The position numbers and the translations under genes are program-made. A stretch of DNA of 64,000 nt from a virus. Shown here piece after piece: positions 3,311 to 58,732 of the stretch. The notes under the pieces are model-generated. The model searched no databases and had not been told where the DNA came from. It saw only the letters and a list, made by a program, of their open reading frames with translations. The DNA lies in IMG/VR virus record IMGVR_UViG_3300028558_000001, positions 1 to 64,000 of that record. One strand, written 5' to 3'. Position 1 is the stretch's first letter; each line of letters starts with the position of its first letter.

Positions 3311-4245
3311 TGGCAAGAACGTTAATCAATGGACCAGAGGGAATACTCTCTGGTTCTGTTACTAGAGGACTACTAAATACAGCCACTTCCGGCTCGGCAG
3401 TAATTGCGAAAGTTCTTACTGACGGTACGATAAGCCTTGGTTATACTGGTGCTGACTCTGGTACAGGTGACGTTACCCTATCATTAAATCAAGCATATCA
3501 CTTTACTTTTACAAACACTATTACATTTTCTAATACTGTTACTGTTGGTAACTCTACTGCAAACGTAGTTGTTACTGGAACATCGCTTGTATTAGCTAAT
3601 TCTACTAATTCATTAACCATCAATCCAGCATCTACTCTCGGTGGTACTGGATCAGTTGGTGGTTCTAATACACAAATTCAGTTTAATGATTCTGGTTCAG
3701 CCAATGGTTCTGCTGGATTTGTGTTTGATAAAACTTCAAACAGCGTAACAATTGCCAACAATTTAACTGTTTCTGGTAATACCAATATTACTACTGCTGG
3801 ATTTCTAATCGGAAATTCTACAGTAAATACGTATATAACATCAACGTCTATTGTATTAGCCAATTCCACTAATTCATTAACCATCAATCCAGCATCTACT
3901 CTAGGTGGCGGTGGTGGCGGTGTAGCTGGTTCTAATACACAAATTCAGTTTAATGATTCTGGTTCAGCCAATGCTTCCGCTGCTTTTACATTTAATAAAA
4001 GCACCAATACAGTAAACATTGCTAATAATTTAACTGTTGCTGGTAATACTAATATTACAACTACCAGTTTTTCTATTGGAAATTCTACAGTAAATACTAA
4101 TATTCTACCAACAAGTATTACACTAAGTAACAATTCTAACAGTATTTTTATTGATACTGCCACTTCAAACATTTCAGTTAATGGCGCTATAGTGTGTGTT
4201 CTTGGTAGAGCTTTTGCAATAGCCGCTGGCTTTAGTTTAACATAA
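3310..4245 (+). CDS. Tail fibre-like protein with internal duplication
   Basis: Two copies of an ~88-aa unit containing GSNTQIQFNDSGSAN; Thr/Ser/Asn-rich. Confidence 0.7.
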   Translation: MARTLINGPEGILSGSVTRGLLNTATSGSAVIAKVLTDGTISLGYTGADSGTGDVTLSLNQAYHFTFTNTITFSNTVTVGNSTANVVVTGTSLVLANSTNSLTINPASTLGGTGSVGGSNTQIQFNDSGSANGSAGFVFDKTSNSVTIANNLTVSGNTNITTAGFLIGNSTVNTYITSTSIVLANSTNSLTINPASTLGGGGGGVAGSNTQIQFNDSGSANASAAFTFNKSTNTVNIANNLTVAGNTNITTTSFSIGNSTVNTNILPTSITLSNNSNSIFIDTATSNISVNGAIVCVLGRAFAIAAGFSLT

Positions 4246-4254
4246 GAGGATAAC

Positions 4255-5067
4255 ATGCCTAATATTTCCCCAATCTTTTCTCGCGTAGGTGACGTACAAG
4301 GTTCTGTTCTGTTACAGAATCCAGTTGCTGCTACTGGTACTGGTTATACAGGCGCAGATGCAAACACTGTTGCAATTTATCAGTCAGACGCAACCAATGG
4401 TGGATTCGTTCAGCGTATTCGTATTAAGGCAATGCAAACTCAGCCAGCAAATGTTGTTCGTTTTTGGTTAGCACAACCTTATGGTCAATTAACTACTACA
4501 ACAACTGCCCCACAGACACCTACAGCAACTATTTCTGCTTCTGCTGGAACAATGACTCCCGGTGTATATTATATGAAGGTACAGGCAATTGATGCATTCG
4601 GACAGCCCGGAGCATTTTCTACTGAAATTTCAAATACTGTTCCTTCTACTGGTAATAATATTGTTTGGGGATGGTCTGCCCCTGCAACTGTAACTCAGGG
4701 TGTTTCAAACTACAGACTTGCTATTGGTTTAGCTTCTGGTCAGGAACAGTTTGTTATTGCAAATACAGGTAACGTTCTAACTTATACACAGAACACTTCA
4801 TTTTGGGTAGGTCAGTCAGGAAACCAAGTTGGTTCATTTATCGTAACTGGTAACTCATCTGCATCTTTCACTACTCCATTAACTTTGAATACTACACTTA
4901 TTGGGGAACTTTCAATTCCAGCAATTACTTTATCTGCATCTGCTGCAACTGCTGATTTTGATTATCCAATCAACATCGCTGTTCCTCCCGGTTATCGTAT
5001 TCTTGCTGGTCTAGGTACTGCTTCTGCAAATGGTTTAATTGCTACAGTAATCGGTGGGAAATATTGA
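4255..5067 (+). CDS. Virion structural protein (FN3-like central domain)
   Basis: YYMKVQAIDAFG...FSTE segment; position in the fibre module. Confidence 0.55.
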   Translation: MPNISPIFSRVGDVQGSVLLQNPVAATGTGYTGADANTVAIYQSDATNGGFVQRIRIKAMQTQPANVVRFWLAQPYGQLTTTTTAPQTPTATISASAGTMTPGVYYMKVQAIDAFGQPGAFSTEISNTVPSTGNNIVWGWSAPATVTQGVSNYRLAIGLASGQEQFVIANTGNVLTYTQNTSFWVGQSGNQVGSFIVTGNSSASFTTPLTLNTTLIGELSIPAITLSASAATADFDYPINIAVPPGYRILAGLGTASANGLIATVIGGKY

Positions 5068-5988
5068 TTGTTAGACTTTTTTCATGTTCCACAGTTTCCA
5101 AAAGGTGTAGACCAACAGATATTTAATGCTAATTCTCCTACTACTGGAGTTAATTGGGCAACATGGACTAAACCGCGCGGAATCAATTGGGTAGAATTTT
5201 TTGTATGGGGCGGTGGTGGTGCTGGTGGCGCAGGAGCCGTTGGTGCATCAGGTTCCGCCGCTGGTGGTGGTGGTGGCGGATCGGCTGTCCAAATGCATGT
5301 AGTTTATCCAGCTTGGGCGTTACCAGATTTACTTTATATATCTGTAGGTGAAGGTGGATTAGGTGGTTCTGGTGCTGGTGGTAATGGTATTCCTTCATGG
5401 ATTGGACTTTACCCATCTAGCACTTGGCCTCAATGGATATTAGCGAATTGTGCTGGTGGCGGTGGTGGCGGCGCGGCTTCTGCTGGAACTGGTGGCGCTG
5501 CTGGAGGCGGTGGTGGTGCTACTGGTATAGCACAACAATGTATGCTTGGATTATGTATTCCCGGATATATGGGAAGCACTTCTAATAATCTAGGTGGTCA
5601 AGCAGGAATTGTTGGTAGTTCAGGTTCGGCTTCCGCACTTACACTACCAACAACTGGACTGCTTGTTACTGGTGGTTCTGGTGGTGGCGGTTATGCAACG
5701 GGAAATGGCGGTGGAATGAATACTCCGGGCTATCCATTTCCCGGCGGTACGATTGCTTCCGGTGGTCAATCATATCAAAATAATGGTTCTAATGGATTTC
5801 AAGCAATACCAAAACTATTATATTTTTATGGTGGTATGGGTGGTGGTGCAGGTACAGTTAATGGTGGTAATGGTGGTAATGGTTCTTATGGTTGCGGCGG
5901 CGGTGGAGGCGGTGGAGCATTTACTGGTTTTGCCGCTGGAAACGGCGGTAATGGTGGTCCCGGTCTAGTTATAGCAACATCTTGGTAA
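5068..5988 (+). CDS. Glycine-rich adhesin-like protein, paralog 1
   Basis: Polyglycine runs alternating with variable segments; MLDF...WTKPRG start; ends GGPGLVIATSW. Confidence 0.7.
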   Translation: MLDFFHVPQFPKGVDQQIFNANSPTTGVNWATWTKPRGINWVEFFVWGGGGAGGAGAVGASGSAAGGGGGGSAVQMHVVYPAWALPDLLYISVGEGGLGGSGAGGNGIPSWIGLYPSSTWPQWILANCAGGGGGGAASAGTGGAAGGGGGATGIAQQCMLGLCIPGYMGSTSNNLGGQAGIVGSSGSASALTLPTTGLLVTGGSGGGGYATGNGGGMNTPGYPFPGGTIASGGQSYQNNGSNGFQAIPKLLYFYGGMGGGAGTVNGGNGGNGSYGCGGGGGGGAFTGFAAGNGGNGGPGLVIATSW

Positions 5989-6001
5989 GGATTTATAATT
6001 A

Positions 6002-6985
6002 ATGTTAGACTTTTTAAATCTTTCAACTAATCAAAAAGGTGTAGACCAACAGATATTTAATTCTACTGGAGGTACGGCTGGTTCTAATTGGTTAGTTTGG
6101 ACTAAACCACGCGGCATTAGTTTTGTTGATGTATTCATGCTTGGTGGAGGCGGTGCTGGTGGTGCTGGTGCTGTTGGTGCAGCATCAACCGCTGGTGGTG
6201 GTGGCGGCGGTGGTTCTGGAGCACAATATCATGCAATATTTCCTGCATGGGCATTACCAGATATTTTATATATTTCCGTTGGTTCTGGTGGATTAGGTGG
6301 TTCTGGTGCTGGTGGTGCTGGTGCTGGTTCATGGATATCATTAACATCAACTGCTAGTTCTGCTAATTATGTATTAGGAGTAACAGCGGGTGGAGGCGGC
6401 GGTGGCGCTGGTGGCGCTGGTACTGCTGGTGGCGCTGGTACTGCTGGTGTCGCACAAGCAGTAAGCGTAGCTAGTTTATATGGTATGTCTATGTCTGGTT
6501 ATACTGGTTCTGCAACTAACTGTTCTTTAGCAGGACAAGCAGGAATTGCTGGCGGAACTACTGGTGGTGCTTCCGCCCTTACTTTACCATTAACTGGTTT
6601 AGTTGTTACTGGTGGAACTGGTGGTGGTGGTCTTGCATCACTTGGTTCTACTGGTGGTGGTGGTGGTCAGTTTACTGTCCCTGCTGGTGGCGTGTTTCCT
6701 GCGCCACCAAATGCTTCCGGTGGCGCAGGACCATCTAATAGTCCCGGAACAAATGGTTCTAATGGATTTCAAGCAATACCAAAACTATTATATTTTTATG
6801 GTGGTATGGGTGGTGGTGCAGGTGGATTAGCATCTGGTGGTGGAGCTACTACTTCTGCTGGAGGCATTGGTGGTAATGGTTCTTATGGTTGCGGTGGAGG
6901 CGGCGGCGGTGGCGGATTCACTGGTGCGACAGTCGCCAATGGCGGTAATGGTGGTCCCGGTCTAGTTATAGTAACAAGTTGGTAA
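6002..6985 (+). CDS. Glycine-rich adhesin-like protein, paralog 2
   Basis: Same architecture as paralog 1. Confidence 0.7.
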   Translation: MLDFLNLSTNQKGVDQQIFNSTGGTAGSNWLVWTKPRGISFVDVFMLGGGGAGGAGAVGAASTAGGGGGGGSGAQYHAIFPAWALPDILYISVGSGGLGGSGAGGAGAGSWISLTSTASSANYVLGVTAGGGGGGAGGAGTAGGAGTAGVAQAVSVASLYGMSMSGYTGSATNCSLAGQAGIAGGTTGGASALTLPLTGLVVTGGTGGGGLASLGSTGGGGGQFTVPAGGVFPAPPNASGGAGPSNSPGTNGSNGFQAIPKLLYFYGGMGGGAGGLASGGGATTSAGGIGGNGSYGCGGGGGGGGFTGATVANGGNGGPGLVIVTSW

Positions 6986-6994
6986 GGATTTAAT

Positions 6995-7963
6995 ATGTTA
7001 GATTTATTTCATGTACAACAATTTGGTAAAGGTGTAGACCAACAGATATTTAATGTTAATAGTGGAAGTGCATCAGGATGGGTTACTTGGATAAAACCTA
7101 GAGGAATCAATTGGGTTGATTTCTTCATGCTTGGTGGAGGCGGTGCTGGTGGTGCTGGTGCTGTTGGAGCATCATCAACAGCGGGGGGCGGCGGTGGTGG
7201 CGCTGGTGGCGCTCAATTTCATGCTATTTTTCCTGCATGGCTATTGCCTGATATTTTATATATTTCCGTTGGTTCTGGTGGATTAGGTGGTTCTGGTGCT
7301 GGTGGTGCTGGATTAATTTCATATATATCAATATATCCTGTTGCTACTGCTAATTATTTACTTGGGTCTGCATCTGGTGGTGGTGGTGGTGGGTTAGGAG
7401 GCGCTGGTACTGGTGGTACTGCTGGTGCGTCTGCTGGTTCTTCATCAATAGGAAATGCAAGTCTTTTTGGTTTGTGTATATCTGGATATACTGGTGGTGC
7501 TTCCATTAATTTAGCAGGACAAGCAGGAGTTGTTGGTGGATCAGTTAGTGCTGCTGGAAATATAACTCTACCTACTACTGGTTTAGTAGCTACTGGTGGA
7601 ACTGGCGGCGCAGGAATTGGTGTTGCTTCTTTGGGTGGCTATAGCGGAGGATCATTTAACTCTCCTGCTGGTATTTTTCCGTTTCCTTCTCAAAATGGTG
7701 GAATTGGTGGGGGACATGCTCCAGCAACGGCTGGTTTACCCGGTTCTAATGGATTTCAAGCAATGACAAAAACACTATTCTTTTATGGTGGTACTGGTGG
7801 AGGTTCTTGTGGTCAAGATGCATCGGCAGGTTCTAATGGTGGTAATGGTGGTTTTGGTTCTTATGGTTGTGGCGGTGGAGGTGGAGGCGCAGCATATACA
7901 GGAAATATAGCAGGTATTGGTGGCAATGGTGGTCCCGGTATAGTTATAGCAACAGCTTGGTAA
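6995..7963 (+). CDS. Glycine-rich adhesin-like protein, paralog 3
   Basis: Same architecture as paralog 1. Confidence 0.7.
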   Translation: MLDLFHVQQFGKGVDQQIFNVNSGSASGWVTWIKPRGINWVDFFMLGGGGAGGAGAVGASSTAGGGGGGAGGAQFHAIFPAWLLPDILYISVGSGGLGGSGAGGAGLISYISIYPVATANYLLGSASGGGGGGLGGAGTGGTAGASAGSSSIGNASLFGLCISGYTGGASINLAGQAGVVGGSVSAAGNITLPTTGLVATGGTGGAGIGVASLGGYSGGSFNSPAGIFPFPSQNGGIGGGHAPATAGLPGSNGFQAMTKTLFFYGGTGGGSCGQDASAGSNGGNGGFGSYGCGGGGGGAAYTGNIAGIGGNGGPGIVIATAW

Positions 7964-7971
7964 GATAAATA
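7964..7971 (+). promoter_or_regulatory. Late promoter variant (GATAAATA)
   Basis: NATAAATA in the intergenic gap 26 nt before 7998. Confidence 0.45.
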
Positions 7972-7997
7972 TAGTAATACTATTTGAGGGAATTATA

Positions 7998-8444
7998 ATG
8001 ACTATTACATCAGTATCATATCAGAATGACGGTTCAGTTTTAGTAAATTATAGTGATGGGTCATCACTAATTACTACTGATGCTGATGTGAATGTAAATG
8101 TATGGAAAACATCTGGTGGTATAATATCTCCTTATGTACCTCCTGTACTTCCACTAGACCCAAATACTTCTGTTTCTGATCGTCAATTCTTTCAGGCTGC
8201 TGCTGTTATAGGATTAATAACTGATTCTGATGCACTAGCTATGATGTCAGTTGGAACAATACCAAGTACATTAGCTTCTGCTATTAATATGCTCCCTTTA
8301 GACCAACAATTTTCAGCTAAAATGAAAATAATTGGTGCGCGTACATTTATCCGAAACGATCCATTTGTTGGGGCATTAAGTACGGCAATGGGACAAACAT
8401 CTACCCAAGTAGATGCATTATTTTCTTTGGCTATGTCATTATAA
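7998..8444 (+). CDS. Tail fibre-associated (chaperone-like) protein
   Basis: W..SGG.I.PY.PP N-terminal motif and SDRQFFQA...QVDALF C-terminal domain typical of fibre accessory proteins. Confidence 0.55.
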   Translation: MTITSVSYQNDGSVLVNYSDGSSLITTDADVNVNVWKTSGGIISPYVPPVLPLDPNTSVSDRQFFQAAAVIGLITDSDALAMMSVGTIPSTLASAINMLPLDQQFSAKMKIIGARTFIRNDPFVGALSTAMGQTSTQVDALFSLAMSL

Positions 8445-49954: not shown

Positions 49955-50458
49955 ATGAGAACAACTGACACACATGTATTTTTTTGGGGATCATTCTTAT
50001 CTAACTTTTATTATGCCCCATTTGATGTAGCATTTGAAGGTGAAACACTTCATTTTAAATCTTCTGAGCAAGCCTATATGGCTTCAAAAGCTCTGTTCTT
50101 TGGTGATAGCGCGGCCTTTAGGAAGATTCTAGACGCCTTCGATGCTAGAGAAGCCAAGGCCATTGGGCGAACTGTAAACAATTTCGATGCTATCGCATGG
50201 GATGAAGTCTCATATGAAGCGATGTTTTCAGCCTGTGTCGCCAAGTTCGCCAACAATATCATCATCCGCGAAAAGCTTATTGAGACTGGCGATCTAATTC
50301 TTGTGGAAGCAAGTCCCCTAGATTGCATCTGGGGTGTTGGCCTTCATGAAGATGATGATCTAATTCTTAATGAAAAGAACTGGAAAGGCGAGAACCGCCT
50401 AGGGAAGGTTCTTATGGAAGTCCGTTCATTTATGAAAGAAAGTTTTCCCAATGAGTGA
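49955..50458 (+). CDS. NADAR (YbiA-like) family protein
   Basis: FLSNFY, SSEQAYMASKA, AKAIGR, LVEASPLDCIWGVG, GENRLGKVLM. Confidence 0.92.
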   Translation: MRTTDTHVFFWGSFLSNFYYAPFDVAFEGETLHFKSSEQAYMASKALFFGDSAAFRKILDAFDAREAKAIGRTVNNFDAIAWDEVSYEAMFSACVAKFANNIIIREKLIETGDLILVEASPLDCIWGVGLHEDDDLILNEKNWKGENRLGKVLMEVRSFMKESFPNE

Positions 50459-50625: not shown

Positions 50626-51707
50626 ATGGCAGTTCGAATTGGTAAGTATATTTCATTTGATGATGAAAGTCGTTCTGAGACTACTACGTTTAGTCCAACG
50701 ATTGGTAAGGAAATACTGGTTTCTTTTAAGGATAATGATGGAGAAACAGGTTCACGAATTATCTTGAGGAAAGACATTCCTAAGTTAATTACTTATTTAC
50801 AGGATTTTGTGGATGATTACTCATGAAGTTAAATGTTAATATTGATCATACCTGTACTTATTCAAAACGTTCTAAGGAAGCTTATGGAGATTGGCGAAGT
50901 GACTACTCTAATGATTTAGAGTCAGTTACTATTTCAGAAGATGGTTATGGAGAACCAATTGACTTTGAAGTTGAAAATGGTGAAGAAGTCTTTGTGGTTT
51001 GGGCTGAGTATTCTACTGGTGACTCTTTCGGGCGTTCTTCTGGCTCTTTTGATGTTGTTACCGTCTACAAGAGTGAAGACAAAGCTAATAAAGCTGCTAA
51101 GATTTTAACTAGTCCTGTATCTGATGGTAAAGATTATTATGAGTCATGGACAGTTGAATTAACTACAGAAGGCGGTAGCCTTCTAAAGTATAATCGTCCT
51201 TGGATGGGATACTTTGAACATTTAGAAGGGGTTAATGTAACCCCTGCTATCATTGGTTCTGGAAGAAAGGGACGGAGATATGTCTGATTTTAAAGTTGGT
51301 GATAAGGTAACGATGTATGGCTACCACCCTGTTGCAAATGACCTTGATGAAGCTTACAATGGTGAAGTAGGAACAATTGTTGATATTGGTTCATACATTG
51401 AAGTTCAATTTGAAGTAGAAATTGATGGATTAGATAATTATCTTCTATTTGCAAATGAAATTGAATTAATTGAACCTTTTGAATTTAAGGAGGCACTTTA
51501 ATGTCTAAGAAAATTGAATTTGATTTAACTGGTCTTGAAGTTTTAAAGATCATGAATTTTTTTAATAAGTGTAATATCGACACTGATACTGTTTGTGTTT
51601 CTGTTGATATTAATGCGTCAGATAATACTTATGTCTGGCCCATGATTTTTACTGAGATTGCGACTGGCAAAGCAGTAGATGTTACTGATTACCGGGAGGA
51701 AGTTTAA
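50626..51707 (+). other. Small hypothetical genes (50626-50826, 50823-51287, 51280-51501, 51501-51707)
   Basis: Overlapping start/stop codons. Confidence 0.7.
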
Positions 51708-52714
51708 TGAAGCACTTATCATTTCCATCTATTGAACAGTTTCGTAATGTAGTAAAGTCTGTTTCTGATCGTACATATCATAATGGACATGTTCGTAAGC
51801 CAGTCATTATGTTTCGTGGTACTGTAAAGAGTCATGGAACCAATGCATCTATTGTATATGATCGAGAAGAGAATGTATTCTATGCTCAATCTCGTTCCAA
51901 TGTTCTTTCCCTAACTTCTGATAATGCTGGTTTCTGTCAGTATTTTGAGACTAATAGGGAATTTTTTGAGACGTGGTTAAGAAACACTGTGTCGGATGGG
52001 GAACGCTATTACTCTATCTATGGTGAATGGTGTGGTGGAAACATTCAGAAGGGTGTTGCTATCTCAGGTCTTCCTAAGATGTTTCTTATTTTCGCTCTTA
52101 GACTATCTAATTTAGATGAGGATAACAATCCAGTTTCTAACTGGTATTTTGATAATCTTGAAGTCCCAAAGAATGAAATTGGTTGTTATTCAATCGCTTC
52201 ATTTGGAACCTATGAGATTGCCATTGACTTTAACAATCCTGAACTATCTCAGAATCAGTTAGTAGAGTGGACAGAAGGTGTAGAAGAAGTCTGTCCAATT
52301 GGTAAGTTCTTTGGTAATGAAGGTGTTGGTGAAGGAATCGTTTATCATCCAGTGAGTGCCGATATTCCTAATTTTCATCTTTCAGAACTATTTTTCAAGG
52401 TAAAGGGTGAAAAGCACTCTGTTTCAAAGGTGAAGACCCTTGCGGCAGTTGACGTAGAAGTTATTAATTCTATTAATGAATTAGTTGCCTCTCTTGCTAC
52501 TGACAATCGCTTTAACCAAGGAATTCAGGTTCTAACGGAACGTGGCATTGACGTAAATGACTCCAAGAACACCAGAGACTTTATTACATGGGTCAAGGAC
52601 GATGTTATCAAGGAAGATCGGGATACAATCCTTGTTTCTGGCCTTGACTTCGGCAAGGTAATTGGTAATATCACGTCAATGGCCGGTAAGTGGTTTAATA
52701 GTCGGCCAATTTGA
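51707..52714 (+). CDS. RNA ligase 2 family protein
   Basis: KSHGTN motif I, YGEW.G.NIQKG, GEGIV, FKVK. Confidence 0.82.
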   Translation: MKHLSFPSIEQFRNVVKSVSDRTYHNGHVRKPVIMFRGTVKSHGTNASIVYDREENVFYAQSRSNVLSLTSDNAGFCQYFETNREFFETWLRNTVSDGERYYSIYGEWCGGNIQKGVAISGLPKMFLIFALRLSNLDEDNNPVSNWYFDNLEVPKNEIGCYSIASFGTYEIAIDFNNPELSQNQLVEWTEGVEEVCPIGKFFGNEGVGEGIVYHPVSADIPNFHLSELFFKVKGEKHSVSKVKTLAAVDVEVINSINELVASLATDNRFNQGIQVLTERGIDVNDSKNTRDFITWVKDDVIKEDRDTILVSGLDFGKVIGNITSMAGKWFNSRPI

Positions 52715-52738: not shown

Positions 52739-53446
52739 ATGTCAAGTTACCATGAGTTAAAGAACGCTGCATTTATCACCGTTCTAAACAGTTATCTAAA
52801 TCTACATAACGTTCCTTCTGATATTGCCCTAATCATTAATGAATATATCATTGCTGATAAGATCAATTTCAAGCCACATGCTCACAATCCTTATTCTGTA
52901 GAAGATGGTCTTGGTATCATCGAGCAATTTTCTGGTCCAGTTGATGTTGCTGATCCAGTTTATGTTGAATATGTCAACACTCTACGGACTTCAATCAACT
53001 CTCTTGCTTCAATCATTAAGGTACTCAATCGGTATATTAATGATTGTGAGTTTAATAAGTGGATTGAACTTAATGCCAATATTGACTCTCCATACCGCCA
53101 TAACTTTCATAAGTTAATTGCAGCAGTTCGCCATGATCTTGTTTTTGATTATAATGAACTAATTGCTCTGCGTGTTTACTGGAAGGGTATGTATAAGGCT
53201 GTCCGTTCATACAATCAGAGTAATCTATCCCCATCAACAGTACATTAAGGGGAGCTTATAATAATGAATAAGAATAAGCTCACCAAGGAAGTATTTGAGG
53301 AAATTTTAGAAGTCGCTATTGATGCTTTTGGTTTCTCCTATGTTTGGGATACTATTAAGGATTTCAATAGAGAACTAAATTTTGATGATGATTGTTTAAC
53401 CGATCCTGATGAGGATTTCTATTGGACAGGAGAAGAGGATGAGTGA
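52739..53446 (+). other. Two hypothetical genes (52739-53248, 53264-53446)
   Basis: SD-preceded ORFs. Confidence 0.7.
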
Positions 53447-53804
53447 ATATACTACTAAAGATTTATCTGAACTAGTTTCCAAGATTAATTCAGATGTTGA
53501 ACTTGCCATTAAGATTTCTAATGAAGTTAGGACAGGTTTCGCTATTCGATACTCAGGAACTTGGTACGTTCCTGAGACAAGTCGTCTAACATATGAGGAA
53601 GTCCTAGAAGGCATTGAAAAGAATGCCTTTAGGGATGAATTACTTCCTTCTCTGTGTGAGGCACTAGATAACTATAAAAGGTTAGTAGAGACGTATGGTG
53701 AATCATATGTTTTCCATATTGATGATGATCATTGCTTTGTAGAAGAAGACTATGGTTATGACGGACAGTATACGGGTTGGCTAAATTCATCATCTAATTG
53801 TTAA
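53439..53804 (+). CDS. WxSSSxxC-family paralog 1
   Basis: Ends GWLNSSSNC. Confidence 0.8.
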   Translation: MSEYTTKDLSELVSKINSDVELAIKISNEVRTGFAIRYSGTWYVPETSRLTYEEVLEGIEKNAFRDELLPSLCEALDNYKRLVETYGESYVFHIDDDHCFVEEDYGYDGQYTGWLNSSSNC

Positions 53805-53829
53805 TAATTATCAAGAAAGGATTTATATT

Positions 53830-54198
53830 ATGAGTTATACTAATGAAGATTTAGACTCGGCTGTTAAGGAAATCTATGCGGCAGTAGCAAAGGCAGAAAC
53901 GATTTCAGAGGAACTTCGTGAGGGGTTTACTCTTGAGATTGCCTATGGTATGGGTGGCTGGTACGTTCCCAAGTCATCACGCCTTGATTATGAAACCATT
54001 CTGGCTAAGATCGAGGAAAATAGCTTTTCTGATGATGATCTAGAACTTGTCAAGGAACTTCTAGAGGAATATGCGGAAATGAAGGAAAAGAATCCAACCC
54101 GTAACTATGTGTTTGACTTAGAAGAAGGCGTACTATATCGTAAGTCTTTATATGAGGATGATTCGACTGGTTGGCGTTCATCTTCTTCCTCTTGCTGA
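53830..54198 (+). CDS. WxSSSxxC-family paralog 2
   Basis: AYGMGGWY; ends GWRSSSSSC. Confidence 0.8.
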   Translation: MSYTNEDLDSAVKEIYAAVAKAETISEELREGFTLEIAYGMGGWYVPKSSRLDYETILAKIEENSFSDDDLELVKELLEEYAEMKEKNPTRNYVFDLEEGVLYRKSLYEDDSTGWRSSSSSC

Positions 54199-54211
54199 AA
54201 AAGGTTTAATA

Positions 54212-54466
54212 ATGAGTGATCTGTTAACTTTCAAAGAGATTATTGATATTATTGCATCTTCTGATGATGTTTCTTCGGAAGATCGCCTTAAGATCAAGAC
54301 CCTTCTTAATCTTTATTATGATAAGAAGCGTTTTTATGAAACCGATTACAAGTTTGATATTGTTAATTGGAAGCTAGTTCCTGTTGATAAGTATGAATCC
54401 ACTTGGGATTCATCTTCTTGTTCTGGTTATGACGAAGATTGGAGTTCTTCTGATGCTGAATGTTGA
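54212..54466 (+). CDS. WxSSSxxC-family paralog 3 (two motif copies)
   Basis: WDSSSCSGY then WSSSDAEC at the C-terminus. Confidence 0.8.
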   Translation: MSDLLTFKEIIDIIASSDDVSSEDRLKIKTLLNLYYDKKRFYETDYKFDIVNWKLVPVDKYESTWDSSSCSGYDEDWSSSDAEC

Positions 54467-54812
54467 ACAGGCAAAGGATGCCCTAGATAAGGCAGTTAAA
54501 GATTTACAGGACGCCTCTGATCGCGAGGGCGTACCAGTTAGATATGTCTTTGGTGACTCAGATTATGGTGGCTTCACATATGTTCCTGATTCACTAAATC
54601 TTCTCACATTTGATCAGGTACTTGAAGCTATTGAATATGAGAAGTTCTCATCATATGAGCTTTCAACTGTTTCTCGTCTTATTAAAGAATATAACGAGAA
54701 GACTAAGAATAGCAAGTATGCTAAATTTAAGTTCAATCTAACTAAAGGAACACTTGACGAATCAGAATATGATGATACTGGTCGTTGGTATTCCTCATCA
54801 GAACGTTGTTAA
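54453..54812 (+). CDS. WxSSSxxC-family paralog 4
   Basis: Ends RWYSSSERC. Confidence 0.8.
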   Translation: MLNVEQAKDALDKAVKDLQDASDREGVPVRYVFGDSDYGGFTYVPDSLNLLTFDQVLEAIEYEKFSSYELSTVSRLIKEYNEKTKNSKYAKFKFNLTKGTLDESEYDDTGRWYSSSERC

Positions 54813-54824
54813 GGAGAAATTGTT

Positions 54825-55142
54825 ATGAAGCCTATTTCATTTTCTGAGTTATTAGATAAGATCACTGAGGGAGAGATTTCCAAGGAACAGATGGTGGCTA
54901 TCCGTCCACTCATTGATGATTATATGAGGATGAATACTTCTGTTACATCTGAGATTAAGTTTGTTCTAGAAACAAACCAACTATATTTAGATCAGTATTC
55001 AGAAAATCCTTATATGGATGACTGGATGGCTTCAACTGCAAGTTGTTCTGGTTATGAAACCGTTTATAATTATGACAAGTGGGCCAATCAGCGTATTGAT
55101 CCTGAATGGGGTGAGAAAGAGTTTTATCGCTTCGATGATTGA
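54825..55142 (+). CDS. WxSSSxxC-family paralog 5 (internal motif)
   Basis: WMASTASCSGY followed by a C-terminal extension. Confidence 0.75.
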   Translation: MKPISFSELLDKITEGEISKEQMVAIRPLIDDYMRMNTSVTSEIKFVLETNQLYLDQYSENPYMDDWMASTASCSGYETVYNYDKWANQRIDPEWGEKEFYRFDD

Positions 55143-55223
55143 TCCTAATGTTGGTTGTATCCTATTAGGATTAGTAATTATAAGCATCTATCTGTACGTA
55201 ACTACTAGATAAAGGAATATAAG

Positions 55224-56132
55224 ATGATTCTGACTGGTTCTCATGCACTTGCCAAATATATTGATATTGGTCGTGAACCCAAGGACATTGATTATCTTTG
55301 CTCATATGATGAATATGAAGCCTTCGTTTATTTTAATGAAAGCAAGATTGTTCATAAAGGCGATACCAAGTTTGGGCATTTCGTTATCATGCTCGGCTCC
55401 AAGCCAATTGAGTTTGATATTGCTGAGAAGTCAGAATCATCTAAAATTCTTTATGATGCATATAAGGGAAGGGAAGCACTTCCTCTCCATGTTCTATATG
55501 CCATGAAAATGTCTCATCGTTATCTTAGGAATTCTCCTCATTTTCTCAAGACGATGAACGACATTATTCTTATGCGTGATGAAGGAGCAGGAATTACCTC
55601 AAAAATGGCTGAGTGGATTAAGCTCCGTGAGAAGGAAACTTATGTTTACAAGCATCCTGACCTTACCGTTGATAAGGTGAACTTCTTTGTGGATAATTTC
55701 TATAAATTTGATCATGACGACGTTCATGAAGCTATCAAGGTAGGCGATGCTCCTGCTTATCAGGCTATCAAGATTCCCGGAGAAGATGTGAAGTGTTCCA
55801 AGGAACTATTTGATGCCCTTCCATATGAGAAGAAGCTTCTTTGCACCTATGAAGAGTCTTGCGTCCTTGCACTAGAGCGCCACCAGATTCCAAATAACTA
55901 CAATCCTGATCCTCTCAAGTCTTTCCAGATTGCTCTACAGAAGGTTTGTTCTTCTATTACTTCTGGATGGTTTCGTGAATGGTCATGGGAAAATTACTAT
56001 CAGGTACTTGACTTCTATGCTCAGAAAGGGCATAATGACTATGTTGATCGTCTCAGGAAGGCAGATGATGAAGGTCGTCTACGTCTTTGGGATGACGTTA
56101 AGCAAAAACTAATGAATAATAAAGCAGCTTAA
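55224..56132 (+). CDS. Nucleotidyltransferase-fold phage protein
   Basis: N-terminal hGS...DxD (LTGSHAL...PKDID) Pol-beta-type signature; KMSHRY, HDDVH, LALER downstream. Confidence 0.6.
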   Translation: MILTGSHALAKYIDIGREPKDIDYLCSYDEYEAFVYFNESKIVHKGDTKFGHFVIMLGSKPIEFDIAEKSESSKILYDAYKGREALPLHVLYAMKMSHRYLRNSPHFLKTMNDIILMRDEGAGITSKMAEWIKLREKETYVYKHPDLTVDKVNFFVDNFYKFDHDDVHEAIKVGDAPAYQAIKIPGEDVKCSKELFDALPYEKKLLCTYEESCVLALERHQIPNNYNPDPLKSFQIALQKVCSSITSGWFREWSWENYYQVLDFYAQKGHNDYVDRLRKADDEGRLRLWDDVKQKLMNNKAA

Positions 56133-56133
56133 T

Positions 56134-57132
56134 ATGAAAGGAAATTCCCTCTTGGTTGATATTAACCTAAATTATAATGATTCTCTATATTCGTCTGTAG
56201 AAGGTAAGTTTGTTTTAAAGCATTTACATGAGAATGTAGATATTGTTTGTGAAGAATTTGATTCTTCCAATACTCTACAGGAAATCATGGCGATTACCAA
56301 ACAAGTTATCAAAAATATTGTCATCATCCAACATTCTGTTCATACTGTTTATATGTTATCTGATAACTATCATATCCGTATGTTTAAGAATAATAAGATT
56401 GTTTCCCTATCCGTTAAAGGTTCACAAAAGAACGTTGACTATTTTAAGGGAATCATTAATGTAGCAGAAGAAGAACCTGTTGTGCATTGGTTCCATAAGG
56501 AAGGTTCCTCTTTCGCTCAGGAGAGCTTTCCTCTCAAGAATAACAATATGCCTATTGATGAAATGTATCCATTCATCAAGGATGGATTGACAGATTATTA
56601 TGATAGATATATGAAGTCTTCTGCATCTATCCTCCTACTCATTGGTCCTCCCGGCTGTGGTAAGACAACATTCCTTCGTGGTCTTCTCCATTATACCTCA
56701 TCTGATTCTATGATGACTTATGATGAACTTCTACTACAGGATGACCACTTCTTCATTCGGTTCATTAAGTCAGATGATCTATTCCTAATTATCGAAGATG
56801 CTGATACAATGATTAGACCAAGAGACGAAGGTAATAAGCTAGTTGCTCGTTTCCTAAACCTATCAGATGGTATCATGGATATTCAGAACAAGAAAATCGT
56901 TTTCACAACCAATCTTGATTCTCTTGCTAATGTCGATCCAGCACTTACCCGCGAAGGCCGTTGTTTTGATGTTCTTCACTTCCGTCATCTTAATTTTGAT
57001 GAGGCAACAAAACTAGCAGATAAGTGTGAGATTGATTTCAATCCAGCAAGACGCTCTGATGAGTTTCCAGTATCAGAAGTCTTTAATAACAAGCGCAACA
57101 ATGATCGCAAAACAAAGTTAGGATTCTTTTAA
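56134..57132 (+). CDS. AAA+ ATPase
   Basis: GPPGCGKTT, IIEDAD, FTTN, DPALTREGR. Confidence 0.9.
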   Translation: MKGNSLLVDINLNYNDSLYSSVEGKFVLKHLHENVDIVCEEFDSSNTLQEIMAITKQVIKNIVIIQHSVHTVYMLSDNYHIRMFKNNKIVSLSVKGSQKNVDYFKGIINVAEEEPVVHWFHKEGSSFAQESFPLKNNNMPIDEMYPFIKDGLTDYYDRYMKSSASILLLIGPPGCGKTTFLRGLLHYTSSDSMMTYDELLLQDDHFFIRFIKSDDLFLIIEDADTMIRPRDEGNKLVARFLNLSDGIMDIQNKKIVFTTNLDSLANVDPALTREGRCFDVLHFRHLNFDEATKLADKCEIDFNPARRSDEFPVSEVFNNKRNNDRKTKLGFF

Positions 57133-58172: not shown

Positions 58173-58328
58173 ATGAAACATATTAAAAATCCTATTGCCA
58201 AAGACCTTCGTACTCCGAAGTACCGACTCAGGGTCGTGAAGGACAAGAAATCATATGACCGCAAGGCACAGAAAAGGGAGGATCAAAAATCCTCCCTTTC
58301 TGACGTTTATTATCCTGCAATAGTGTAA
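58173..58328 (+). CDS. ArfA-like small basic protein (51 aa, not in the ORF track)
   Basis: AAGGAG SD; MKHIKNPIAKDLRTPKYRLRVVKDKKSYDRK...; resemblance to ArfA judged by eye. Confidence 0.6.
   Translation: MKHIKNPIAKDLRTPKYRLRVVKDKKSYDRKAQKREDQKSSLSDVYYPAIV
58269..58302. terminator. Intrinsic terminator hairpin inside the ArfA-like ORF and after the convergent gene
   Basis: AAAGGGAGGAT-CAAAA-ATCCTCCCTTT. Confidence 0.8.
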
Positions 58329-58732
58329 CTGATTTCTTCTCTTGAGAATTTCTTGCGACCGTCATTTGGTGAGACTTTCGTAAGCTTCCCTGCTTTCACC
58401 ATTTTTGAAAGAACAGGTGAAAGACTGTTCTTAACCACCTTCGTTTCCTGCATGATCTGATCGAAATTACAGGCTTTCATCTTCTGAATAGCATGGAGAA
58501 TTTTCTTCTCCGCCGTATCGAGGATGATTGGTTTTTCTTTTTCTGGCTTCACCATAGAAACAACATTGTCGGTGTTGTCCTTCTCTATGGTCATAGTGAA
58601 CTCAATCTTCTTCAATATGCCAAGGTCTTCAAGGGCTGCTAGAGCGCCCGTTACCTTGGCTTGGTTCTTGAGGGAAAGATTGTTAATGTCCACAACTCCA
58701 TGATATTTCCAAGCCATATGAACCTCCATCAT
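58310..58732 (-). CDS. Winged-helix (MarR-like C-terminus) DNA-binding protein; likely start 58717
   Basis: EKKILHAI...FDQIMQET...SLSPVLSKMVKAGKL...DGRK. Confidence 0.65.
   Translation of the reverse strand: MMEVHMAWKYHGVVDINNLSLKNQAKVTGALAALEDLGILKKIEFTMTIEKDNTDNVVSMVKPEKEKPIILDTAEKKILHAIQKMKACNFDQIMQETKVVKNSLSPVLSKMVKAGKLTKVSPNDGRKKFSREEISYTIAG

Follow-up and report, generated by a model that had tools for sequence, protein, structure and literature searches.

A phage cassette of cysteine-tailed acidic proteins and a putative nucleotidyltransferase

The first 64,000 nucleotides of the IMG/VR virus record IMGVR_UViG_3300028558_000001 (the window analysed here, in its whole length) contain five consecutive genes for small acidic proteins, most of which end in a serine-rich motif closed by a cysteine, followed on the same strand by a gene with the signature of a nucleotidyltransferase (NTase) (Table 1). 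The locus raises the question of what the repeated small proteins are for, and whether the enzyme acts on them. A preliminary description of the DNA had proposed an enzyme-plus-substrate module that also took in the adjacent AAA ATPase and resembled the systems that make RiPPs (ribosomally synthesised peptides that are modified after translation). The locus represents one instance of a two-component cassette confined to phages, in which 1-5 tandem, fast-diverging acidic proteins are encoded ahead of a same-strand NTase. As an enzyme-plus-tail module the earlier interpretation remains the best one, given the co-occurrence of the two families and the NTase fold, but the AAA ATPase has no part in it.

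The five tandem products (84-122 aa, isoelectric point (pI) 4.24-4.63) are encoded by open reading frames (ORFs) that lie where the preliminary description placed them, each starting with ATG behind a GGAG- or AAGG-type ribosome-binding site. BLASTP matches link them to one another (E = 1e-16 to 8e-22 between paralogs 1 and 2, 3e-11 between paralogs 2 and 4, approximately 1e-4 between paralog 1 or 2 and paralog 5, and 4e-4 between paralogs 3 and 5), and I59, Y79, F92, Y105, W114, S117 and C121 are invariant in their alignment, so that by sequence comparison they are true paralogs, as had been claimed. The motif W-x-x-S-S-x-x-Cys-stop is terminal in four of the five, the number first reported to end in cysteine, and internal in paralog 5. 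The motif is not due to chance, because no other ORF in the 64-kb window ends in it (571 ORFs of at least 30 aa scanned) and because, with the terminal Cys not required, W-x-SSS-type cores cluster near ORF ends in related loci (of 172 such cores on the plus strand, 153 are separated from the end by 6-9 residues). A further very acidic ORF of 60 aa (53264-53446, pI 4.05, C-terminus ...DFYWTGEEDE) overlaps the start of paralog 1 by 8 nt; it lacks the tail, and no similarity to the paralogs was detected when it was compared with them by BLASTP.

The gene that follows was first recognised by a GS...DxD signature, and structural comparison confirms that its product has an NTase fold with an intact catalytic set. 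Pfam assigns residues 90-275 to DUF7275 (E = 4e-68, 229 bits, cut-off 27) and residues 1-71 to DUF7277 (E = 3e-10, 41 bits, cut-off 27), and the protein also matches phrog_2141 (E = 2e-91); even at E-values up to 10, Pfam returned these two domains alone and no DUF1814 (PF08843), and neither PADLOC nor NCBIfam gave a match. In an AlphaFold2 (AF2) model built from 33 homologues (predicted local distance difference test (pLDDT) 95.9), exhaustive structural comparison gave residues 1-140 the Pol-beta nucleotidyltransferase fold, with NTase matches at Z 7.3-10.8 and the next, unrelated folds below Z 5; Foldseek agrees on the fold, weakly. The top match is MenT1 (8an4; Z 10.8, residues 1-141, 135 residues, root-mean-square deviation 3.4), followed by ANT(2'')-Ia (Z 9.8), TglT/MenT3 (9.2), LnuA (9.0), JHP933 (8.5) and MenT4 (8.1). 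The alignments with TglT and MenT4 reach approximately residue 257, and the helical C-terminal domain has no clear structural match.

The catalytic motifs of the Pol-beta superfamily, hG[GS]...[DE]h[DE]h...h[DE]h on an alpha-beta-alpha-beta-alpha-beta core, are represented in the enzyme by G5-S6, D21-I-D23 and E63. Among the 81 enzyme sequences compared, G5, S6, D21 and D23 are present in all and E63 in 78, and K95, H98, K109, R135, H164, D165, H168, E210, E211, E218, R219, S247, G248 and R251 are also invariant. Because the catalytic residues are conserved across these homologues, the gene product is evidently an active enzyme and not a relic. A possible assignment of DUF7275 to the HD-phosphohydrolases, prompted by the conserved H98, H164-D165 and H168, found no Pfam support at E up to 10 and no fold match. 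The most conserved C-terminal segment of the enzyme (residues 241-251, encoded by 55944-55976; C-[ST]-S-I-T-S-G-W-F-R, in which C242, S244, S247, G248 and R251 are invariant or nearly so) resembles the partner tail W-x-S-S-S-x-x-C reversed, with a Cys-to-Trp spacing that is likewise 7 residues. This likeness could be accidental, or it could hint at pseudo-symmetric pairing; variants of C242 or W249 do not track with loss of the tail genes.

The co-occurrence of the two families, whose absence, like that of the NTase fold, the preliminary description had counted among the grounds for refuting its module, is strong in both directions. A scan of viral sequences with the single enzyme protein found no relatives and a profile was used instead; the best 80 of 216 confirmed viral-contig loci, fetched with the enzyme profile alone, were then scanned in six frames. 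Tail-motif ORFs, 182 in number and 1-5 per locus, are present in 72 of the 80 loci; all 182 lie on the enzyme strand and 181 lie upstream, with a median distance to the enzyme of 839 nt, whereas the motif is absent from approximately 8,000 opposite-strand ORFs. The association is kept in 36 of 40 enzyme lineages (70% identity), and two of the eight apparently empty loci carry variant tails. For the reverse set, loci were fetched by a DNA pattern for AYGMGGTY, a body motif of one tail subfamily, with the enzyme ignored. This yielded 21 tail-family loci, one of which was too short, and the enzyme is downstream in all 20 that could be tested (16 with the enzyme downstream, and four short stretches of contigs in which it had already been located). 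The pattern also caught 18 loci outside the family, which were discarded: 17 of one unrelated family (L090, L091, L093 and 14 others; C-terminus ...GRVVA.V.K[LV], without a DUF7275 neighbour) and one other.

When all ORFs of 81 loci were clustered, no third gene family was common to them beyond lineage-specific synteny. The surroundings of the pair differ from phage to phage: VR7, a T4-like phage, has it between e.3 and e.2; in Phapecoctavirus its neighbours are Dcm and Sir2 genes, and in the window an RNA ligase and a terminase block. Thus, the cassette moves and persists as a unit. Of 50,697 deposited phage genomes, 733 encode the enzyme; they span many genera and include those of T4-like coliphages such as VR7, of Phapecoctavirus, of phages of Acinetobacter, Aeromonas and Pseudomonas, and of jumbo phages, and all members are annotated as hypothetical; RB69 is probably another carrier, to judge solely from a weak match in fold to its ORF139c. 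Among prokaryotes (one genome per species, 185,579 species) the enzyme was found in only six contigs of metagenome-assembled genomes (MAGs), five of which have tail genes, and the module is essentially viral. Complex prediction for the enzyme with paralog 2 scored 0.00, which gives no verdict and is counted neither for nor against the pairing.

The AAA ATPase gene is as first described, and its start 2 nt after the enzyme stop codon in the window would suit a three-part system, in which the ATPase might, for example, unfold tagged proteins. Of the 80 enzyme loci, however, only two have a homologue within 6 kb of the enzyme, approximately 5 kb upstream both times and never adjacent, and the family has a distribution of its own in 169 phage records of other groups (e.g., Pseudomonas jumbo phages and Campylobacter phages). 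On these grounds the ATPase was rejected as a cassette member: it is an unrelated neighbour that is not conserved alongside the enzyme and in other loci does not adjoin it, and a three-part system is highly improbable.

The sequence of the small proteins varies widely around a constant end. A word-based homologue search with paralog 2 matched paralog 2 only; the family profile matched 833 representative clusters among 1.84 billion proteins, and among the best 150 of these 833 the match reaches within a residue or two of the C-terminus. Single linkage joins 181 of 189 tail proteins into one superfamily. Mean column identity over 130 members is 22%, with the W, S, S and C of the tail invariant or nearly so; the universal core is W-x-x-S-S, followed by Cys at W+7 in 124 of 167 unique tails and at W+5 in 33, and the YGMGG motif is present in 39 of the 189 proteins. 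As far as these alignments indicate, the C-terminal W-x-x-S-S-(x-x)-Cys-COOH tail is the sole universal feature of the family. The tail serines are drawn from both serine codon families and the stop codon after the Cys is TAA in 79%; therefore, selection acts on the protein and termination is genuine, and the same stop codon usage led to the rejection of selenocysteine incorporation or readthrough past the terminal Cys. Paralogs 1-4 have the features that define the family, being small and acidic, ended by W-x-x-S-S-(x-x)-C-stop and accompanied by a DUF7275 gene downstream. Pfam, PADLOC and NCBIfam give no match to the small proteins; the C-terminal part of paralog 2 matches phrog_899 (E = 6e-9), of which the Cys-tailed family, itself undescribed, is a part.

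An AF2 model of paralog 2 from a 130-sequence alignment (pLDDT 92.5) predicts an N-terminal helix, a beta-hairpin with YGMGG as its turn, an inserted helical pair, and a last strand (residues 114-117) that holds the Trp, with lower confidence over the final SSSSC. In this model the tail appears to be anchored to the fold via the Trp, with its Ser-Ser...Cys end exposed. No PDB structure resembles the model (best Z 4.7), its matches in a library of viral models are uncharacterised phage proteins only, including RB69ORF139c, and no solved structure related by sequence to the enzyme or to the tail protein was found.

The fold neighbours of the enzyme transfer a nucleoside monophosphate (NMP) to hydroxyls, namely the 3'-OH of RNA in the case of MenT and a sugar hydroxyl in the case of ANT(2'') and LnuA (PMC10435456, PMC11541572, and general knowledge). 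Because the only invariant hydroxyls of the partner are those of two serines, the preferred explanation is that, having recognised the tail, the enzyme nucleotidylates one of its serines, a proposal to which somewhat less than an even chance is given on fold analogy and conservation. The enzyme would bind the tail with the Trp and the terminal Cys or carboxylate as recognition elements, and would pass the NMP from a nucleoside triphosphate to the serine hydroxyl at W+3 or at W+4, both of which are nearly invariant. As payload, the variable acidic bodies (effectors, decoys or adaptors) would depend on the mark; they are multiplied and diversified, and lie in accessory early-gene regions. This logic of payload plus tag is suggested by a body that has diversified while the tail stayed constant. 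MntA-HepT (HEPN-MNT, a type VII toxin-antitoxin system) is a precedent for protein nucleotidylation by an adjacent NTase, which modifies its small partner covalently by the mechanism proposed for the cassette. Unlike HepT, the partners in the cassette have no HEPN domain or Rx4-6H motif and the candidate acceptor is Ser, not Tyr; the cassette enzyme has a large extra helical domain (DUF7275), and MNT structures are absent from its top 50 fold matches.

Several observations weigh against serine nucleotidylation. Proteins are not the substrates of the closest structural relatives of the enzyme, which act on RNA or on small molecules; ANT(2'')-Ia and LnuA in particular are bacterial resistance genes with small-molecule substrates and no partner proteins. 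In the model of paralog 2 the Trp lies within a beta-strand (E114-117), so that approximately the last five residues alone look exposed and the tail would be no floppy peptide. The motif is internal in paralog 5 and in some relatives, and a free C-terminus is therefore not strictly required. No recognisable tail gene lies within 6 kb of the enzyme in L026/L028, L027, L067 and L072. Finally, several lineages have an RNA ligase joined to the enzyme or beside it, a pointer to RNA as the substrate.

The fusion came from a search for longer relatives of the enzyme: P0271 (L127:6001-7893) is a 630-aa protein in which DUF7277 and DUF7275 are joined to a PHA02142 oligonucleotide-binding (OB) fold and RNA ligase domain, and its gene is preceded by two Cys-tailed genes; it is known from a single metagenomic contig and may be an artefact of assembly or frameshift. 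In the RSP15 record (L062) an RNA ligase gene starts 88 nt after the enzyme, in L054 and L069 an RNA ligase gene is directly upstream of the first tail gene, and in L059, L016 and the window one lies within 1-2 kb of the cassette. Over 49 whole records, proximity is weakly above chance by rough arithmetic (approximately 9 of 54 ligase matches within 10 kb versus approximately 5 expected), and in T4-like phages the ligase is 40-50 kb away. The fusion and the ligases that flank the cassette in several lineages, the window included, are new here. The RNA ligase of the window is possibly linked to the cassette, and the association is a lead by which RNA stays a candidate substrate.

The main rival of tail nucleotidylation is accordingly a regulator of the MenAT kind. 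The enzyme would act on RNA, such as tRNA 3' ends, together with the RNA ligase in repair or host takeover, and the Cys-tailed proteins would be inhibitors, pseudosubstrates or adaptors whose Ser-rich tail enters the active site and there replaces a 3'-OH. MenAT and AbiE pairs (MenA1-MenT1, MenA3-MenT3/TglT; DUF1814) share with the cassette the NTase fold with its GS and DxD set, three of the fold matches listed above being MenT toxins and MenT1 the best, and in them, too, a small partner is encoded immediately upstream in the same orientation. The natural fusion of enzyme, OB-fold and RNA ligase in P0271, with two tail genes still ahead of it, and the ligases beside the cassette in the five loci and the window named above fit an RNA substrate as well, and the small proteins are strongly acidic, like nucleic-acid mimics. 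However, an antitoxin-type partner is needed in a single copy, not as 1-5 diverging paralogs; MenA and AbiEi have no counterpart to the W-x-x-S-S-(x-x)-C tail; MenAT and AbiE are bacterial and chromosomal whereas the cassette is phage-only, its near-absence from bacteria being unlike a toxin-antitoxin system; the enzyme shows no sequence match to DUF1814 or any other Pfam family beyond its own two domains; and the excess of nearby ligases over whole records is weak. A regulator of this kind is possible and has to be taken seriously, with a probability well short of even.

The spacing of Ser and C-terminal Cys recalls the cores of lanthipeptides and of aminovinyl-cysteine (AviCys) peptides, and one enzyme with several tandem "precursor" genes would be in keeping with such a pathway: nucleotidylation would activate Ser for elimination to dehydroalanine, to which the terminal Cys thiol would add to form a C-terminal lanthionine or AviCys-like ring. 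The likeness to a RiPP proposed in the preliminary description is nevertheless weak. In the short tail W-x-x-S-S-C (the W+5 class counted above) the serines adjoin the Cys and are unsuited to a ring; the predicted form of the small proteins is a folded domain of 60-120 aa with the Trp in a beta-strand, not a leader-core peptide; and the clustering of the 81 loci revealed no conserved cyclase, decarboxylase, protease, exporter or other RiPP maturase family nearby. Ring formation is thus very unlikely.

Alternatively, the enzyme might release a free nucleotide product, a competitor or decoy signal bound or carried by the small proteins via the tail or the YGMGG surface. Phage NTases that make competitor cyclic dinucleotides (CDNs) exist (Ho et al., bioRxiv 10.1101/2022.06.09.495361); like the cassette enzyme they belong to the Pol-beta superfamily and lie in anti-defence neighbourhoods, and in Phapecoctavirus the cassette is placed in accessory regions beside methyltransferase and Sir2 genes. 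That family differs, however, in its motif (GS-x-AY[GAN]T-x4-SDxD; an example is Av05_0062, with GS-x-AYGT...SDxD) and has no reported Cys-tailed partners, and tblastn found no similarity between Av05_0062 and the cassette enzyme, for which reasons identity of the two was rejected. With YGMGG confined to a minority of the tail proteins, no common pocket is evident beyond the tail, and a free nucleotide signal is an unlikely product.

By sequence the cassette is not a member of MenAT, AbiE or HEPN-MNT, because either sequence membership or the partner domain is wanting in each case, but it plausibly works like one of them. A full-text literature search found no paper on DUF7275, DUF7277, the tail motif or the pairing of enzyme and tail. 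Because the pairing recurs across very different phages, yet no paper describing it was found, it is probably an unstudied two-part phage system.

The parent virus record (176,660 bp, complete, with direct terminal repeats) evidently represents a distant T4-superfamily myovirus: its large terminase shares approximately 50% identity with the large terminases of cyanophages and of Sinorhizobium phages of the phiM12 type, and genes for a small terminase and for a gp15-like stabiliser of the tail sheath are also present. No tRNA genes were found in the 64-kb window. Positions 4001-8000 have a G+C content of 0.43-0.46, compared with approximately 0.37 elsewhere, and a GC skew of up to +0.31. A NADAR-domain protein (49955-50458; PF08719, E = 3e-44) is encoded upstream, approximately 1.2 kb from the RNA ligase and approximately 3 kb from the cassette; enzymes of the NADAR class strip ADP-ribose off nucleic-acid bases, and the gene could therefore have a counter-defence role. 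A minus-strand gene (58310-58732) for a small protein with weak matches to MarR-type winged-helix proteins (E approximately 2e-4, under the Pfam cut-off) separates the early plus-strand block from the terminase genes.

Table 1. Genes of the cassette and its immediate neighbours, numbered from the first nucleotide of the window
Feature	Position	Strand	Description
RNA ligase	51707..52714	+	335 aa; PF09414, phrog_548 (E = 1e-54); 0.7 kb upstream of paralog 1
Paralog 1	53439..53804	+	121 aa, pI 4.3; C-terminus GWLNSSSNC-stop; tail-family profile A5, E = 5.8e-6
Paralog 2	53830..54198	+	122 aa; YGMGG turn; C-terminus GWRSSSSSC-stop; profile A5, E = 6e-16
Paralog 3	54212..54466	+	84 aa; without N-terminal half; motif twice (internal WDSSSC, terminal WSSSDAEC-stop)
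Paralog 4	54453..54812	+	119 aa; C-terminus RWYSSSERC-stop; start overlaps end of paralog 3 by 14 nt
Paralog 5	54825..55142	+	105 aa; degenerate, with WMASTASC internal and 31 further residues after the motif
Nucleotidyltransferase	55224..56132	+	302 aa; DUF7277 NTase core (G5 S6, D21 x D23, E63) and helical DUF7275 domain
AAA ATPase	56134..57132	+	332 aa; PF00004 (E = 7e-9), phrog_14322; adjoins the enzyme here

A strictly conserved C-terminal tag on diversifying small proteins, tied to a single enzyme, is the hallmark of a system dedicated to modification or targeting. The cassette may go further and be a phage-specific protein-tagging system, in which the NTase would place on a universal C-terminal W-x-x-S-S-(x-x)-Cys tag either a nucleotide or a short protein-primed oligonucleotide for an RNA ligase to extend or join; the chance of this larger claim is real but well short of even. 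Such a system would represent a new kind of post-translational mark for host takeover or counter-defence, carried by diversifying small effectors or decoys. The cassette is widespread and is present in tractable phages of E. coli, and it could reveal either a new protein modification in the conflict between phage and host or a new control of an RNA-end-modifying enzyme.

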